From NCBI GenBank assembly GCA_045649105.1, contig JAZRPG010000045.1, positions 4,530-68,529 on the forward strand: DNA of 64,000 bases. Direction: 5' to 3'. Of this stretch, positions 48,337 to 54,387 are shown in pieces (position 1 is the first letter of the stretch; every line of letters starts with the position of its first letter). Position numbers and translations under genes: made by a program. Below the pieces are notes generated by a model. It was given only the letters and a program-made list of their open reading frames with translations, made no database searches and was not told where the DNA came from. The stretch comes from Eubacteriales bacterium (GTDB lineage Bacteria > Bacillota > Clostridia > Oscillospirales > JAAYXM01).

Positions 48337-48369
48337 GAAGAACACAAATTCCGTTTGGGAGATATTCTG

Positions 48370-49419
48370 ATGCTGAAAGACAATCCGTATACAGAGCCGC
48401 CCGAAAGCTCTGAATTTTCACGGCGTGAATATGTAAGCTCTCTCAACTCGTTTGTCGCATCGCTTGAGGAAAAATCAAGCTCTTTGCGTGATAAGTTCAT
48501 GCCGCCTGAAAGCTTCTTCCGCGATATTGAGAGCTACAGAAAAAAGTATATTGACATGCTCGGAAAGCCTCTGTGCCGATATGAAAAGTCAGTCCCGCCG
48601 GCATCATACGCCTTTGTTGCCGAGGACGAAAACTGCAATATATACCGCATAAAAATTGAGGCGCTGCCCGGGCTTTTCTTTCACGGGCTGTATCTTGTCC
48701 CGCATGAGGAGGCAGCTCCGTCCCCGCTCGTTATTGCGGCGCACGGTGCCCTCGGCACGCCTGAGCTTCTGTGCAATATGCACGGTAAGAACGGCTATTC
48801 AAACCTCGTCCCGAGGCTTGTTTTGCGCGGCGCGCGCGTCTTTGCGCCGCAGCTCCTTCTGTGGAACATAGGTCAGAGCCCCGCAAAGCCAATATATGAG
48901 ACAGAATACAACCGCGCAGACCTTGACCTTCGCCTCAAGAGCCTTGGCGGAAGCATGACTTCGCTCGAAATATTCTGCATAATGCGCGTACTTGACTTTC
49001 TTGAGGCACACCCCCGCACCGCATTCTCACGCGTCGGCTTTGCCGGTATGTCATACGGCGCATATATAGGTCTTCACATGATGGCAGCGGATACACGCAT
49101 AGAAAGCGCATATCTCTCCGGCTGCTTTAATGACAGGCTGCGCTATCGCTTTTCCGAGTGGCACTACAATAACGCCGCGAACACATTTCTCGATGCGGAA
49201 ATCGCCGCGCTCTGCGCACCCCGCGCGCTGTATCTCGAGGTCGGCAGTAAGGACGATATTTTCGATTTTGGCTCTGCCGTGCGTGAAGCATACCGCGCAA
49301 AAAAATACTACTCCGCCGCAGGCGCAGAGGAAAAGCTCTGCTTCTCGGTATGGGACGGCGGTCATCTTGTAAACCCTGCAGATGACGGGCTCGATTTCCT
49401 CTTTAAAAACATGCCGTAA
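48370..49419 (+). CDS. Alpha/beta hydrolase (acetyl-xylan-esterase / dienelactone-hydrolase-like)
   Basis: It has the nucleophile elbow GMSYGAY and a C-terminal GGH. The start was set to ATG 48370, with a GGGAG RBS. Confidence 0.7.
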   Translation: MLKDNPYTEPPESSEFSRREYVSSLNSFVASLEEKSSSLRDKFMPPESFFRDIESYRKKYIDMLGKPLCRYEKSVPPASYAFVAEDENCNIYRIKIEALPGLFFHGLYLVPHEEAAPSPLVIAAHGALGTPELLCNMHGKNGYSNLVPRLVLRGARVFAPQLLLWNIGQSPAKPIYETEYNRADLDLRLKSLGGSMTSLEIFCIMRVLDFLEAHPRTAFSRVGFAGMSYGAYIGLHMMAADTRIESAYLSGCFNDRLRYRFSEWHYNNAANTFLDAEIAALCAPRALYLEVGSKDDIFDFGSAVREAYRAKKYYSAAGAEEKLCFSVWDGGHLVNPADDGLDFLFKNMP

Positions 49420-49450
49420 CAGCAACGCTAAACAGCCTTCTGATATAAGT

Positions 49451-49496
49451 AAAAAAGCATGCCGGACATCTGTCTTGATGTCGGCATGCTTTTTTA
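49451..49496. terminator. Bidirectional rho-independent terminator between convergent genes
   Basis: AAAAAAGCATGCCGGACATC..GATGTCGGCATGCTTTTTT, a 13-bp stem flanked by A6 and T6. Confidence 0.8.
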
Positions 49497-49508
49497 CTTA
49501 TCAGCTCT

Positions 49509-51197
49509 TTATTTCTTCAGTATTTTTTCGTTTACCACCTGCAGCTCACAGTCGCATATCTCACGCGCGGCATTTCTGTGTGATATGGCAATGCAGGTGC
49601 GCCCCGGAAGCTTCATTATATTTTCAAGCACGGCTCTCTCCGTCTCCTCGTCAAGCGCGCTTGTCGCCTCATCAAGAAGCAGCACCGGCGCACCGGACAG
49701 AATCGCACGCGCTATTGCAAGGCGCTGCACCTGCCCTTCAGAAAGCCCGCGCCCCCGCTCGCCTATTTCGGTCATAACCCCGTCCCGAAGCTCATTCACA
49801 AAAGTATCGGCTGAGCTTACACGCAGAGCTTTATCTATATCCTCTTCCGTCGCATCAGGTTTTGCAAGCAGGAGATTTTCGCGGATTGTCCCGCTCATAA
49901 GGAAATTACCCTGCGGCACATACGCAAAAAGCCCGCGTGTTGAACTTCCGAGTCTTATTTCCCTTCCGTCAGAGAGAGAAGCACATATCTCTCCGGACGC
50001 AGGTCTTATAACGCCCATAAGAAGCTTGATAAGCGTGCTTTTTCCTATGCCCGATGCCCCTGATATAAGCGTAAGCTTTCCTTTATGTATTTCTGCATCC
50101 GCGTCGGTAAACACCTTTGTCTTCCCGTAATTAAAAGATACTCTTTGAAGGCGTATCAGGTCAAGCTCCTTGTATATTTCCGGTACATCAGTGCAAGTCG
50201 CGTCATCTTCACACGGAAGGTCTGCAAGCTCCATTATCCGCTCTGCCGACGCTATCGCCGAGTAGTACTTTGAGAGGCTTCCTGAAAGGCCCGCAAACGG
50301 CGTCTGTATCTGTCCTATAAGCTGCATTATCGCAGTAAAATCACCGTAACCGAAGCCGGGTGTGCCCGACAGTATCCTCACAGCGCCCCAGACTACCGCA
50401 TACATATATCCGCACATGACAAGCGCGGAAAATCCCGTCCCTGCGCCTGACGAAAACGCGGCTCGCCGCATTTTTGCCTTGTGCTGTGCCTTGGCGCGTC
50501 CGCTTTCTCCGTCCGTTATCTGCTCCTCCATCTTAAAGGACTTTATAACAAGAAGATTTTCCATCGCCTCCTGCACAAATGAGCGCAGACGGCCGCCCGC
50601 CTCCTGAACATCTGTGTGCGTGCGCTTCATAAATTTGCGGAATACACGCGCAAACACAAACATCAGAAGCCCGCCGCAGAGTATCAGGATTGCAAAGCGC
50701 CTGTCCACCAGAAGTATCGCCGCAAGCGCTCCGACAAGGCGCGTCAGAAGTCCGATAACCCCCGGCACAAGTGTCGCCGTTGTACTGCACACTATTGAAA
50801 CATCGCCAAACAGGCGGTTTATCACCTCGCCGCTGTGAAACGACGAAACTGCGCTGTAATCCTTTTTTAAAAGAGCGCGGAACACACGCCCGCGCATGGC
50901 TATTTCAAGCCGTGAGGATATGTGCTCCTCAAGCATACGGCATGTTATACTGAGCAGAAGCTGAAGCGCAACGACAGCAACCATAACGACAGCCGCGCGC
51001 CACACGCCCGCAGTATCCCCTTCAATCGCGCGGTTTATCACATCACGCACGACAAGTGTAAAATACACGCCGAGTGCCGCGATAAGAGCGTTTACAGCCG
51101 TCACTGCAAGTATTTTAAGAAGCTCGCCCTTTGACGAATCAAAAATAAATCTGTGCGCCTTATTTTTTTCCAAAAAACACCCTCCCTGCCGCCGCAA
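49509..51197 (-). CDS. ABC exporter, fused TMD-NBD half-transporter (no C39 peptidase domain)
   Basis: 562 aa with six TM helices, Walker A GASGIGKST, signature LSEGQVQRLAIARA and Walker B LLLDEATSALD. Two TTG starts are possible, 51197 or 51173 (the latter with a GGGAGGG RBS). Both overlap the upstream gene. Confidence 0.9.
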   Translation of the reverse strand: MRRQGGCFLEKNKAHRFIFDSSKGELLKILAVTAVNALIAALGVYFTLVVRDVINRAIEGDTAGVWRAAVVMVAVVALQLLLSITCRMLEEHISSRLEIAMRGRVFRALLKKDYSAVSSFHSGEVINRLFGDVSIVCSTTATLVPGVIGLLTRLVGALAAILLVDRRFAILILCGGLLMFVFARVFRKFMKRTHTDVQEAGGRLRSFVQEAMENLLVIKSFKMEEQITDGESGRAKAQHKAKMRRAAFSSGAGTGFSALVMCGYMYAVVWGAVRILSGTPGFGYGDFTAIMQLIGQIQTPFAGLSGSLSKYYSAIASAERIMELADLPCEDDATCTDVPEIYKELDLIRLQRVSFNYGKTKVFTDADAEIHKGKLTLISGASGIGKSTLIKLLMGVIRPASGEICASLSDGREIRLGSSTRGLFAYVPQGNFLMSGTIRENLLLAKPDATEEDIDKALRVSSADTFVNELRDGVMTEIGERGRGLSEGQVQRLAIARAILSGAPVLLLDEATSALDEETERAVLENIMKLPGRTCIAISHRNAAREICDCELQVVNEKILKK

Positions 51198-51618
51198 ACA
51201 GTCCCCTTACGCGCCTGAACACGCGAGAGCGCACGCGGCGCCGCGCATATTTCATATATGAAGCATCTTTTGTATCTATATCCTTTCCGTCACGGCGGAA
51301 AGATGAGACAACACCTATTATCTGCCCGTCAGTTACGGGATATTCCTTTATACACTGGTGGTCTCCGCACATCACATATCCGCGCCGCCGCACGCCTATA
51401 ACCCTGTGCAGCACAAATGTACCGTCTTCTCGCCTGTACAGCGGAATATCGTATTTTTTAAGCCTTCCGCAAGCCTTAATAAGCTCGACGCTGTCGCGGC
51501 CCTCACGAAGAAGCGGAAGCATGCTCTGCCCCGTAATTTCAAGCCGTATGCTGCCGCCTGAAGAAAGCGTCTCCTCAATGACGGGCGCAAGAGCGGAAAG
51601 CGAAACCTTCTTATTCAA
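51160..51618 (-). CDS. S26B-type (SipW/ER-type, Ser-His) signal-peptidase-like protein lacking a membrane anchor
   Basis: 152 aa with GQSMLPLL (Ser box), VLHRVIG (His box, where bacterial type I enzymes have Lys) and CGDHQ (GD box). There is no hydrophobic N-terminus, and the C-terminal tail is Arg-rich. The TTG start overlaps the PqqD gene stop by 8 nt. Confidence 0.7.
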   Translation of the reverse strand: MNKKVSLSALAPVIEETLSSGGSIRLEITGQSMLPLLREGRDSVELIKACGRLKKYDIPLYRREDGTFVLHRVIGVRRRGYVMCGDHQCIKEYPVTDGQIIGVVSSFRRDGKDIDTKDASYMKYARRRVRSRVFRRVRGLFAAAGRVFFGKK

Positions 51619-51883
51619 GTATATCAGCTTCTCTCATTTGCGCTATAAACGCGGCGGTATCTTTCCTTGCAATCTCCTCGGAAACATCATAGCTCTCAAG
51701 TATCGCGGCTACAAGCTCGTCCTCCTCCGCGCCTGAAGAAAGCTTCTCCCAGAGCATTGCGCCGACCTCATTAAGCGTCATCATTCCGTTGAAATCAACC
51801 GCAGCGCTTCCTGTCGGAAGGACGACATTATTCCCCGCGACACTGCGCATTACATAGCAATCCTTGATTTTCAAAACCATCAC
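51611..51883 (-). CDS. PqqD family protein (RiPP recognition element-like)
   Basis: 90 aa. MTLNEVGAMLWEKL..EDELVAAILESYDVSEEIARKDTAAFIAQMREADIL matches the PqqD winged-helix pattern. Its start is coupled to the upstream stop (TGATG). Confidence 0.8.
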   Translation of the reverse strand: MMVLKIKDCYVMRSVAGNNVVLPTGSAAVDFNGMMTLNEVGAMLWEKLSSGAEEDELVAAILESYDVSEEIARKDTAAFIAQMREADILE

Positions 51884-52599
51884 ACCTCCGTATTTTTTGC
51901 GGACATGGCGTTATAACTTGCCAAAGCCGCGTCACTGTCCATATTTACCTTCGCTCTGAATATCGGCACCTGCGAAAACAGACGGTCAACAAGCGCAAGA
52001 AGCTTCGCCGTTTTCTTGTGGTCAACAGGCCGCAGAGTCTGCTCCATAAACTGCACAAGCGCCTCGGCCGGAGCAATGCGCGTAACCTCATTTTTCTCTC
52101 CGCGCTCCAGAAACGCAATTCCGCGCAGCGGCACCGACACATTCCTGCTTATGTCATACTTTCCGCTCCACGGCGTTCCGCACGCAAAAAAAGCACCGTC
52201 TCGCTCAATTATCGCAGGCTTATCGTCGTTTATTACAAATGTCCGCTCCGCACCGAACACCTTCTGCCACAGCTTAATATGCGTCGACTTCCCCACGCCC
52301 GACGGAGCAGAAAACAAATACGCACCGCCGTCAAGGCTTATTGCCGCGGAATGAAGAAGCAGCCCTCCATGCTCTATGAGTGCATCATAAAACACGGTCG
52401 CCGTAAGCATATATTCGCATTCGTCATATGAAAAATGCGGATTTTTCTTTTTTTCATTAAGAATTAAAAAATCAGGGATATTTATTTCAATATCTGCCTG
52501 CTGAAACTCCCCGCATCTGTACGCCTCAAGTCTTGAGTTTGTGAGCTCTCCGCGGCACACGGCACGCACCCTGAGCCCGGCTATACTGTAATAACCCAC
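51880..52599 (-). CDS. HPr kinase/phosphorylase-like P-loop protein (HprK-related kinase)
   Basis: GGLLLHSAAISLDGGAYLFSAPSGVGKSTHIKLW fits the HprK C-terminal-domain P-loop pattern seen in lasso-cluster kinases. The start was set to GTG 52599, with RBS AAGGGGG 7 nt upstream. The track ATG at 52668 coincides with the predicted -35 box. Confidence 0.72.
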   Translation of the reverse strand: MGYYSIAGLRVRAVCRGELTNSRLEAYRCGEFQQADIEINIPDFLILNEKKKNPHFSYDECEYMLTATVFYDALIEHGGLLLHSAAISLDGGAYLFSAPSGVGKSTHIKLWQKVFGAERTFVINDDKPAIIERDGAFFACGTPWSGKYDISRNVSVPLRGIAFLERGEKNEVTRIAPAEALVQFMEQTLRPVDHKKTAKLLALVDRLFSQVPIFRAKVNMDSDAALASYNAMSAKNTEV

Positions 52600-52639
52600 G
52601 CGCCGCACCCCCTTTTGAACATCGCAAAATACTATGATT

Positions 52640-52668
52640 ATAATACCACAACGCAAAAAATACTTCAA
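52640..52668 (-). promoter_or_regulatory. Candidate sigma-A promoter of the kinase-PqqD-peptidase-ABC operon (TTGAAG-17-TATTAT)
   Basis: -35 is at 52663-52668 (rc) and -10 at 52640-52645 (rc). Confidence 0.35.
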
Positions 52669-52704
52669 GTGTTATAAAATACAGCAATATTTTGCACTCA
52701 GCGC

Positions 52705-52734
52705 GCATATTACGGCATATAACCGCGCAAACTA
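52705..52734 (+). promoter_or_regulatory. Forespore-type (sigma-G/F-like) promoter candidate GCATA-N18-CAAACTA upstream of the DUF1540-like gene
   Basis: GCATA at 52705-52709 and CAAACTA at 52728-52734 fit the GHATR-N17/18-CAHWHTA pattern as I recall it. The site is 37 nt upstream of the ATG. Confidence 0.3.
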
Positions 52735-52770
52735 TCTCCGCGCAAAAAAATAAACGGAGGTATTTGCAAA

Positions 52771-52959
52771 ATGTCTGATAACAACGCAAACAAAAGCATT
52801 CAGTGCACAGTAACTTCCTGCGCTCATCACTGCGGCGATGTCAATTACTGCTCTCTCAACACCATACAGGTCGGAACCCATGAGCAGAACCCGACAAAGG
52901 ACCAGTGTACAGACTGCATGTCGTTTGACCTTAAAAAATCAAACGGAAGCTGCTGCTGA
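52771..52959 (+). CDS. Small Cys-rich protein, DUF1540-like
   Basis: 62 aa with RBS GGAGG. It has the spacing C-x4-C-x3-C-x5-C (CTVTSCAHHCGDVNYC), then QCTDCMSF, and ends in SNGSCC. Confidence 0.75.
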   Translation: MSDNNANKSIQCTVTSCAHHCGDVNYCSLNTIQVGTHEQNPTKDQCTDCMSFDLKKSNGSCC

Positions 52960-53071: not shown

Positions 53072-53614
53072 TTATGCTTCCATCTGCTTGCCGAGAAATC
53101 CTGCAACCGTCTGCGCGAGCTTATATCCCGTCTCTCCAAGCTCCGTCTCCGAGCCGTCAAACGCAAATACAATGCACCCCGACACGTCACCCTCGGATAT
53201 TATTGGCGCCGCGATTGACAGATACTGTCCGTTATCACTGTCAGTAACGCTGATTTTTCTTTCCCCGCTCTTGTGCTGATAAATCTGGCGTGACTCAATA
53301 ATATGCTCAAGGTCCTCGCTTATCCTCTTGTCGAGCAAATCGCGGCGCGCAGGTCCCGATGCCGCAATTACCGAATCACGGTCACACACGATTGCTGTCG
53401 CTCCCGTTGTCTTATTGAGCGTTTCGCATATATGGATAGCAAATGTCGCAAGCTCTCCGACGGGAGAATATTTTTTGAATATTACCTCTCCGTCCTTGTC
53501 CGTGTATATCTCAAGCGGATCTCCCTCGCGTATGCGCATCGTGCGGCGGATTTCTTTCGGTATGACGACACGACCGAGGTCGTCAATTCTTCTTACAATT
53601 CCTGTGGCTTTCAT
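53072..53614 (-). CDS. spoVT: Stage V sporulation protein T (AbrB-type N-domain + GAF-like domain)
   Basis: 180 aa. The N-terminal MKATGIVRRIDDLGRVVIPKEIRRTMRIREGDPLEI is the SpoVT/AbrB swapped-hairpin motif. Length and C-terminal domain match SpoVT. Confidence 0.93.
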   Translation of the reverse strand: MKATGIVRRIDDLGRVVIPKEIRRTMRIREGDPLEIYTDKDGEVIFKKYSPVGELATFAIHICETLNKTTGATAIVCDRDSVIAASGPARRDLLDKRISEDLEHIIESRQIYQHKSGERKISVTDSDNGQYLSIAAPIISEGDVSGCIVFAFDGSETELGETGYKLAQTVAGFLGKQMEA

Positions 53615-53741: not shown

Positions 53742-54272
53742 TTATTTATATTCTCCGCAATTTTTGCAATACTGATTTCCTGCTCCGTTTTTGCTTTTAC
53801 ATTTTTGGCATGTCCAGTATCCCGCATCATAACAATTTAATGGCGAAGCTGTATCTGTTGTTCTTTGTCTGACAACACTTTTATCACTGCTTTTTGTGCT
53901 TTTTTCTCCTTGTACTTCACCGTCATTTTCCGCACAGTAAAGCGCTGTGCCTGCAGTTATTCTTACATTGTGAACAATACTGGCACCCGCGCCCAGAATA
54001 ATTGCTATAAGATGATATGTAATGTACTGAAAAAAAGCGAGAGCCGCCGTAATTGCAATTATTGTGATAAACACCCGGAATCCGCCGTCTTCTGCAAGCG
54101 CAAAAGCCGTAATTATCCCTATTATGCCTATAACCCAACAAACTATCTTTCCTATTGTCTCAATCGTCTCACACCAAGCCCACAACGAAGCCGAAATATG
54201 ATCCATCTTCATACATTCCTTCAAAGAATTCGGCTTCTTTGACAATATGCAGCTCGTAAAAACATTCTTCAC
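53742..54272 (-). CDS. Small two-TM membrane protein with C-terminal zinc ribbon
   Basis: Two hydrophobic helices and a C-terminal CQKCKSKNGAGNQYCKNCG. The start was set to GTG 54272, with RBS AAGGGAGG 8 nt upstream, which is downstream of the predicted promoter. The track ATG at 54353 lies upstream of that promoter. Confidence 0.6.
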   Translation of the reverse strand: MKNVFTSCILSKKPNSLKECMKMDHISASLWAWCETIETIGKIVCWVIGIIGIITAFALAEDGGFRVFITIIAITAALAFFQYITYHLIAIILGAGASIVHNVRITAGTALYCAENDGEVQGEKSTKSSDKSVVRQRTTDTASPLNCYDAGYWTCQKCKSKNGAGNQYCKNCGEYK

Positions 54273-54303
54273 TTTTATTTCCTCCCTTAAGTATAATATG
54301 TAT

Positions 54304-54332
54304 ATTTTAGCGAAATTCTCGCTAAAAGTCAA
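54304..54332 (-). promoter_or_regulatory. Sigma-A promoter (TTGACT-17-TAAAAT) of the membrane/zinc-ribbon gene
   Basis: -35 is at 54327-54332 (rc) and -10 at 54304-54309 (rc). The spacer is filled by the inverted repeat at 54308-54324. Confidence 0.5.
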
Positions 54333-54349
54333 TAGCGAAATTCTTTCTA
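54308..54349. promoter_or_regulatory. Two operator-like sites: TAGCGAAATTCTCGCTA (54308-54324, perfect 6-bp inverted repeat) and TAGCGAAATTCTTTCTA (54333-54349, degenerate copy)
   Basis: Read directly from the sequence. Site starts are 25 bp apart, and the sites lie between the divergent XRE gene and the membrane protein gene. Confidence 0.45.
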
Positions 54350-54387
54350 TCATATAATGATATTACTCTTATGGAGGAGGTGTTGAT

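Follow-up and report, generated by a model that had tools for sequence, protein, structure and literature searches.

What does an operon do that carries the accessory genes of a lasso-peptide cluster but not the genes that make the lasso? The question is raised by a 64,000-nt stretch of DNA from a Eubacteriales bacterium of the order Oscillospirales (assembly GCA_045649105.1, contig JAZRPG010000045.1, positions 4,530 to 68,529; hereafter ‘the window’). On its minus strand, positions 49509–52599 are occupied by four coupled genes that encode a P-loop kinase (K) of predicted HprK/PEPCK fold, a PqqD-type RiPP recognition element (RRE; RiPP, a ribosomally made peptide with post-translational modifications), a soluble S26B-type Ser/His peptidase (S26) and an MsbA-like ABC exporter (ABC). 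A sequence-only reading had proposed a non-lasso pathway of peptide recognition, possible phosphorylation, leader cleavage and export, with a substrate that is either encoded elsewhere or is a Cys-rich neighbour. The pathway and the unlinked substrate are supported by our analysis: the four genes match the homologous, collinear lppKBSD genes of an experimentally demonstrated pathway, that of the Linear Polyphosphorylated Peptides (LPPs) of Bacilli (Popov et al., Nat Commun 2026, PMC13381572). We consider it likely that the operon is the lppK-B-S-D core of an LPP-type RiPP pathway, belonging to a divergent clostridial branch.

The LPP cluster of Paenibacillus alginolyticus DSM 5050, lppA-K-B-S-D-N, encodes a precursor, an HprK-like kinase, an RRE, a SpI-like peptidase, the MsbA-like exporter LppD and the NTP transferase LppN (PMC13381572). 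The leader of LppA follows the pattern YxxPxVLxHQxIxFET|xxS; residues N33, V35, W40, Y60, D70, F74 and M78 of LppB hold its Tyr-16, Pro-13 and Val-11 (PMC13381572). In B. subtilis LppK places up to four phosphates on core Ser3, while LppS (S29, H68, D93) cuts the leader after T-1, and does so only in the presence of LppB, the RRE that presents the leader to it; deletion of lppN has no visible effect (PMC13381572). This locus was included in our comparison set as L091 (loci of the set are numbered with the prefix L). Its K-B-S-D order is the order of the window genes, and all four proteins are homologous to those of the window. Neither system has a macrolactam cyclase.

Re-reading of the open reading frames (ORFs) confirmed the four genes and the junctions previously proposed between them. 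The LppK-like kinase gene (ScmC family PF27840; 51880–52599, minus strand, 239 aa) begins with a GTG at 52599 behind AAAGGGGGTG, a start supported by the length of all homologues, about 239 aa; the gene carries LLLHSAAISLDGGAYLFSAPSGVGKSTH. Its stop overlaps the start of the gene for the LppB-like discrete RRE of the PqqD family (51611–51880 (51883), minus strand, 89 aa) in the sequence TGATG at 51882–51878. An 8-nt overlap joins the PqqD-gene TAA at 51611 to the TTG start at 51618 of the gene for the LppS-like soluble S26B (archaeal/SipW-type) leader peptidase (51160–51618, minus strand, 152 aa). For the LppD-like MsbA-type exporter (49509–51173, minus strand), the most likely start is the TTG at 51173 behind GGGAGGGTG rather than 51197, because of this ribosome-binding site and because relatives have the gene called at 553 and 554 aa; the gene then overlaps the peptidase stop by 14 nt. 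The exporter was correctly recognised at the outset as a half-transporter with a transmembrane and a nucleotide-binding domain and without C39, while its length is better given as 554 than as 562 aa.

Profile searches agreed with the four assignments to differing degrees. The PqqD protein matches PF05402 (E 3.7e-17), and the exporter consists of ABC_membrane (PF00664) and ABC_tran (PF00005) domains, with MsbA as the best NCBIfam model and no C39 domain in the Pfam scan. No model of the local Pfam-A copy matches the kinase or the peptidase. The homologues of the kinase all carry the precomputed Pfam assignment PF27840 ‘ScmC’, and the peptidase has a weak match to TIGR02228, the archaeal-type signal peptidase I (E 1.9e-6, 27.8 bits against a cut-off of 51.85). 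The best NCBIfam matches of the kinase are TIGR04249, TIGR04355 and TIGR04352 (ScmC and the HprK-related kinases B and A), each below threshold; matches to these same three models were pooled as ‘HprK kinase’ in the study of LPP clusters (PMC13381572).

A search of PDB with a profile built from the kinase alignment returned nothing meaningful, and the fold is therefore shown by the predicted structure. The AlphaFold model (pLDDT 95) has HprK/P catalytic domains and ATP-dependent PEPCK as its top PDB structural matches (probability 1.0), which makes the modelled fold that of HprK/PEPCK. Among 100 homologues the P-loop SGxGKSTH, H83, NDDKPA and GTPWSGK are invariant, and the longer set of boxes HS(S/A)A, YLFSAxSGxGKSTH, NDDKPA, GTPWSGK and QTLRP is invariant or nearly so. 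The assignment of 51880–52599 to the kinases, made initially from the P-loop and its context, thus holds. The window kinase is 28% identical to P. alginolyticus LppK over 141 aa (BLASTP, E 1e-10), and a hidden Markov model (HMM) of the clostridial kinases matches LppK with E 8e-21. LppK is closer to it than is the lasso kinase encoded next to the lpp locus (E 4e-4).

The cassette resembles in one respect the SynChlorMet (SCM) cassettes, whose ScmC (TIGR04249/PF27840) is the best curated model for the kinase; in both systems an HprK-related P-loop protein is paired with a PqqD homologue. We rejected identity with SCM, as the kinase scores 43.3 bits against a TIGR04249 cut-off of 125 bits and none of the four operon genes encodes a radical SAM protein, whereas SCM cassettes are defined by two radical SAM/SPASM maturases. 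Literature searches on ScmC/SynChlorMet and on PqqD proteins with signal peptidases in Oscillospiraceae found nothing relevant.

The RRE retains the equivalents of all seven LppB residues listed above, those that hold the YxxP leader, and judging from these residues it probably binds a YxxP leader as well. Its signature is Tyr-type (Asn and Asp at the positions of N33 and D70), unlike the Trp-type signature (Gly and Gln) of the paeninodin-type B1 proteins. A clostridial RRE HMM matches LppB with E 1e-9. The window RRE is also 39–45% identical to proteins listed as ‘RRE others’ beside clostridial SpI-like peptidases of sequence similarity network (SSN) clusters 4 and 9; in Supplementary Data 1 of the LPP study, the precursors of these are given as ‘ND’ (PMC13381572). 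The system is not without precedent: the LPP paper appeared in May 2026, and its supplementary table includes relatives of the clostridial branch.

In the peptidase, S32, H71, G85-D86 and E92 are invariant among 30 homologues (boxes G-x-S32-M-x-P and H71-R) and align with S29, H68, G86-D87 and D93 of LppS, so that the catalytic Ser and His of the two soluble SpI/S26B-like enzymes coincide. The clostridial peptidase HMM matches LppS with E 2e-21. The structural model (pLDDT 92) resembles most closely SpsB, human SEC11A, LexA and UmuD; it lacks an N-terminal transmembrane anchor and has instead an amphipathic N-terminal helix (residues 7–19) and a long basic C-terminal helix (119–149). The housekeeping S26B peptidase SipW, of ER/archaeal type, shares the fold and the Ser/His catalytic boxes SMxP, HR and GD. 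Nevertheless, we rejected the identity of the window protein with SipW: it falls below the cut-offs of both the SipW model NF046067 (16.7 against 190 bits) and the archaeal signal peptidase model, it has no membrane anchor, and, unlike SipW, peptidases of the window type always adjoin an RRE or kinase gene. The exporter is 30% identical to LppD over 463 aa (E 2e-63), and a clostridial exporter HMM matches LppD with E 1e-102.

Do the four genes belong together outside the window? A scan of species-representative genomes revealed at least 593 stretches encoding kinase relatives, nearly all of them in metagenome-assembled genomes (MAGs) of Oscillospirales and other Clostridia, with the addition of Acetivibrio alkalicellulosi. 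Gene order was compared in 84 non-redundant related loci. The window's gene order, K-RRE-S26-ABC, occurs in 11 loci. K-RRE-S26 was found in 19, K-RRE in eight, K-RRE-ABC in five, and K-S26, RRE-K and K-ABC-RRE-S26 in four each; in four further loci ABC-S26-RRE and K are on opposite strands, about 3.5 kb apart, four more orders are represented by one locus each, and in 21 loci the kinase gene stands alone. As adjacency recurs in at least nine gene orders, the linkage of the four families is not due to chance, and their expected co-occurrence across Clostridia is borne out, in shuffled order. Fusions were also found: kinase with S26 (L117, 7233–8366, 377 aa), S26 with NTP_transf_5 (L062, 2427–4049, 540 aa) and kinase with PqqD (protein P0109, 334 aa).

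Two further genes of the clostridial loci recall the LPP clusters. One is an NTP_transf_5 gene of LppN type, carried by 16 of the 84 loci, for the most part by loci whose precursor is linked. In 15 loci (e.g. L024, 12749–14251) the cassette is followed on its 3′ side by a fused gene for a Wzz chain-length determinant and a BY-kinase-like (AAA_31/ParA) domain, which suggests the same link to capsule loci as was reported for the LPP clusters of Bacilli (PMC13381572). All-vs-all clustering of neighbouring genes gave no more widely shared family beyond Wzz/BY-kinase (15 loci) and DUF1540 (7 loci). Kinase-S26-ABC(-RRE) sets matched by the clostridial HMMs were also observed in Bacteroidales MAGs (L115, 7016–10217; L121, 5381–8679); the system thus extends beyond Bacillota.

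A candidate substrate was found in the relatives. In 21 of the 84 loci a conserved small ORF, sometimes in two copies, lies upstream of the kinase gene, on the same strand and 60–500 nt away; the distance is larger in a few loci that have a gene inserted. Its leader reads MKKxYxxPE[IL]E[IV]xxFxVEDIIT and is followed by x-S and a core of 12–34 aa with a net negative charge and a high content of Gly, Asp and Ser. An alignment of 16 sequences shows no variation at the Pro and the Ser, and in three short cores the Ser at +2 is the sole Ser/Thr. All but one of these 21 loci also contain the S26 gene. The family matches LppA marginally (E 0.04) and no Pfam or NCBIfam family, with only thiopeptide-leader models appearing at E ~0.1. 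As with lppA, the gene precedes the kinase gene and the peptide has a T...S junction, and by analogy cleavage is predicted after ...IIT and phosphorylation at Ser+2. The two leaders differ in detail, however: Yxx-P-x11-IIT|xS in Clostridia and YxxPxVLxHQxIxFET|xxS in LppA. Genes inserted between precursor and kinase (for a lipoprotein, a DUF559-like protein, a four-helix-bundle protein, an SLH protein and large Big_2 proteins) were considered as additional pathway enzymes and rejected, being mutually unrelated.

The precursor gene often lies directly 3′ of a gene for a large secreted protein. In some loci this 5′ neighbour is a Big_2-repeat protein of 786–1047 aa (L045, 7229–9589; L048, 6585–9728; L068, 6894–9728). 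Seven loci with the peptide gene only (L144, 2823–4997, and six more) have in this place a conserved protein of about 724 aa, which carries a signal peptide and matches no Pfam family.

For a scan of the collection our broad peptide alignment (A5) was too variable, and a tighter one (A6) was used. The strict motif Fx[VT]EDIIT[AEL]S identified 54 loci, one of which was the already known L059. A cassette lies within 6 kb of the motif in 21 of the other 53 loci and is absent from this distance in 32. In five MAGs the precursor gene is on a different contig from a kinase gene or cassette that lacks one (L008/L146, L010/L150, L015/L149, L053/L134 and L028/L167), and in a sixth the cassette of L059 has linked precursors and a further copy on another contig (L125). 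Three of these kinase genes (L008, L010 and L028) are among the 21 solitary ones. Scattering of the components is therefore normal in the clostridial family.

On these grounds the following sequence of events may be proposed for the window. A small precursor peptide would be bound by the PqqD-type RRE at the YxxP of its leader. With ATP, the HprK-fold kinase would add phosphate, probably more than once, to a conserved Ser just past the leader, at core position +2 by analogy. The RRE would then present the C-terminal ...IIT of the leader to the soluble Ser/His/Glu S26B peptidase, which would remove the leader, and the MsbA-like half-transporter would export the short acidic phosphopeptide. What our computations establish is homology and collinearity with the lpp genes, the predicted folds, the conservation of the residues for catalysis and leader binding, the co-occurrence of the genes, the precursor family of the relatives with its position, and purifying selection. 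Polyphosphorylation of Ser and RRE-dependent cleavage were shown for the Paenibacillus homologues LppK and LppS (PMC13381572); their occurrence with the window enzymes, like the export of a short acidic phosphopeptide, is expected by analogy.

Where, then, is the precursor of the window cassette? As first reported, no credible small ORF is present in 52600–52770 or 49420–49508. A wider search with the leader HMM (--max, six frames) and three regular expressions (the clostridial pattern, a generic YxxP...TxS and the LPP pattern Px9Fx[T/A]) gave no credible precursor in the window, L001, L088–L090 or L054. The window and its four closest relatives share the synteny SpoVT – DUF1540 (divergent) – K – RRE – S26 – ABC, with kinases 89% (L088), 70% (L090), 67% (L001) and 59% (L089) identical to that of the window; no LppN gene was found within reach in these close relatives. 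Relative to L088 the four genes have dN/dS values of 0.12, 0.07, 0.12 and 0.16 at a dS of ~0.5–0.6. All four are thus under purifying selection and the cassette is in use. Because precursors are often unlinked in the family and the genes are so conserved, the precursor of the window is most likely encoded elsewhere in the genome.

A different answer would be that the cassette of this clade has been re-targeted away from YxxP-leader peptides towards the Cys-rich 62-aa DUF1540 protein whose gene (52771–52959, plus strand) diverges from the kinase gene, a substrate also considered in the sequence-only reading. The DUF1540 gene does occupy the position that other clades give to the precursor, and it stands head-to-head with the kinase gene in six loci: the window, L001, L088, L089, L090 and the more distant L054 (kinase 45% identical). 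The protein, however, has neither a YxxP motif nor an ...IIT-x-S junction and is encoded on the opposite strand, while the window RRE retains the YxxP-binding residues. The adjacency is limited to these six of ~87 loci, a single clade most of whose members share the SpoVT–DUF1540 synteny, and four other loci have DUF1540 at a distance of 5 kb. Given also that unlinked precursors are common in the family, we regard DUF1540 as a very improbable substrate.

It should also be asked whether the operon is what remains of a paeninodin-type lasso cluster (padeA, C, B1, B2, D, K) from which the cyclase, the B2 protease and the precursor have disappeared. Such clusters share with the window an HprK-like Ser kinase, a discrete PqqD RRE for a [Y/W]xxP leader and an ABC exporter, and in Bacilli LPP and lasso clusters often lie side by side (PMC13381572). 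With P. alginolyticus PbaC and PbaB2 as phmmer queries, however, no homologue of the Asn-synthetase-like cyclase or of the transglutaminase-like B2 protease was detected in the window or in ~140 clostridial loci, in agreement with the initial report of their absence; the same queries recovered 11 cyclases and seven B2 genes, in Bacilli loci, from a set of 31 loci anchored on LppS. An S26 peptidase takes the leader-protease role in 46 of the 84 loci, the RRE has the Tyr-type and not the Trp-type signature, and the kinase has LppK, not the lasso kinase, as its closer relative. Purifying selection on all four genes likewise speaks against decay. Decay of a lasso cluster is largely refuted by these data, and we give it almost no chance.

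More serious, if still unlikely, is the prospect that the cassette is functional but built around a kinase-fold enzyme whose chemistry is unlike that of LppK, or whose target is not a ribosomal peptide; single phosphorylation, nucleotidylation or ATP-dependent activation might be envisaged. The low identity to LppK (28%), the family-specific invariant boxes NDDKPA, GTPWSGK and QTLRP, and the match of the whole-protein model to PEPCK (TM 0.55–0.57) are consistent with this, as is the fact that the best curated model, though below threshold, is ScmC of an uncharacterised radical-SAM cassette. So are the 21 solitary kinase genes, which lie beside genes such as thyA, folA and polA. Against it stand the linked precursors, which always lie directly upstream of the kinase gene, and the invariant Ser after the predicted cleavage site, which mirrors Ser3 of LppA, the phosphorylation target of LppK (PMC13381572).

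Several of our observations weigh against an LPP-type pathway in the window. The NDDKPA and GTPWSGK boxes of the clostridial kinases are not common to LppK, and the chemistry of the kinase could therefore differ. Nor is the kinase strictly tied to the RRE and the peptidase, since its solitary copies, with no RRE or peptidase nearby, are often part of a housekeeping run thyA-folA-kinase-SDR-UDG-polA-coaE (e.g. L005, 10001–10714; L006, L007 and L011). The third catalytic residue of the peptidase is Glu in all clostridial members and not Asp. By pairwise identity neither the window peptidase nor the window RRE belongs to the groups that define LPP, SSN cluster 1 and the ‘LPP RRE’ set: the peptidase is 39% identical to a Ruminococcus SpI of cluster 9, 31–37% to cluster 4, 26–28% to cluster 1 and 26% to LppS, and LppB is detectable by profile only. 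Finally, neither HMM nor motif searches detected a precursor in the 64 kb of the window or, for the four closest relatives, inside 10 kb of the cassette, and the window contains no homologue of LppN (PF14907).

The absence of lppA and lppN is thus a difference from the LPP clusters in the window itself, and the branch as a whole differs in its short (12–34 aa) acidic cores and in its hosts, gut Oscillospirales and further Clostridia in place of Bacilli. We conclude that the window system is a divergent, reduced member of the published LPP kind. A bolder proposal would treat the clostridial branch as a separate and very widespread LPP-like family (at least ~590 kinase-gene matches, mostly from gut Oscillospirales) that makes short acidic peptides phosphorylated at Ser+2, often from precursors encoded in trans, with the window clade serving an unlinked or non-canonical substrate. 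We put this forward tentatively, its chances being somewhat short of even.

Other features of the window were also noted. Upstream of the kinase gene there is a sigma-70-like promoter-like site (52640–52668, minus strand; TTGAAG, a 17-nt spacer and TATTAT with an extended-10 TG), which is a consensus match only. Immediately 3′ of the exporter stop an intrinsic terminator hairpin with a U-run (49440–49504, minus strand; minimum free energy −37.9 kcal/mol, z = −10.7 against shuffles) lies between convergent genes and is usable from both strands. The gene convergent with the exporter (48355–49419, plus strand) encodes a 354-aa protein with marginal matches to alpha/beta-hydrolases and serralysin-C; its position is kept in L001 and L088. 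On the other side, beyond DUF1540, lie spoVT (53072–53614, minus strand; TIGR02851) and the gene of a predicted 203-aa membrane protein (53742–54353, minus strand) with a zinc-ribbon-like C-terminal CxxC...CxxC tail and no family match. The bacterial large signal recognition particle RNA (RF01854; 121–386, minus strand, 176.9 bits) is the sole Rfam family at gathering score in the window. Near 40 kb the predominant coding strand switches; at the same point GC skew moves from about −0.17 to about −0.02 and AT skew becomes positive.

The first description of the LPP pathway dates from 2026 and is limited to Bacilli; the same logic of kinase, RRE, SpI-like peptidase and exporter is now seen in a divergent branch that is common in gut Clostridia. 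That branch was left unanalysed in the original study (PMC13381572). Our analysis adds to it a precursor family, a prediction of where cleavage and phosphorylation take place, and the scattering of its components, making it directly testable by co-expression and mass spectrometry. For genome mining, this means that cassettes without a precursor are to be treated as normal members of the family and not as relics. If the bolder proposal of a separate, widespread family is true, the gut microbiota would hold a large uncharacterised class of exported phosphopeptides.

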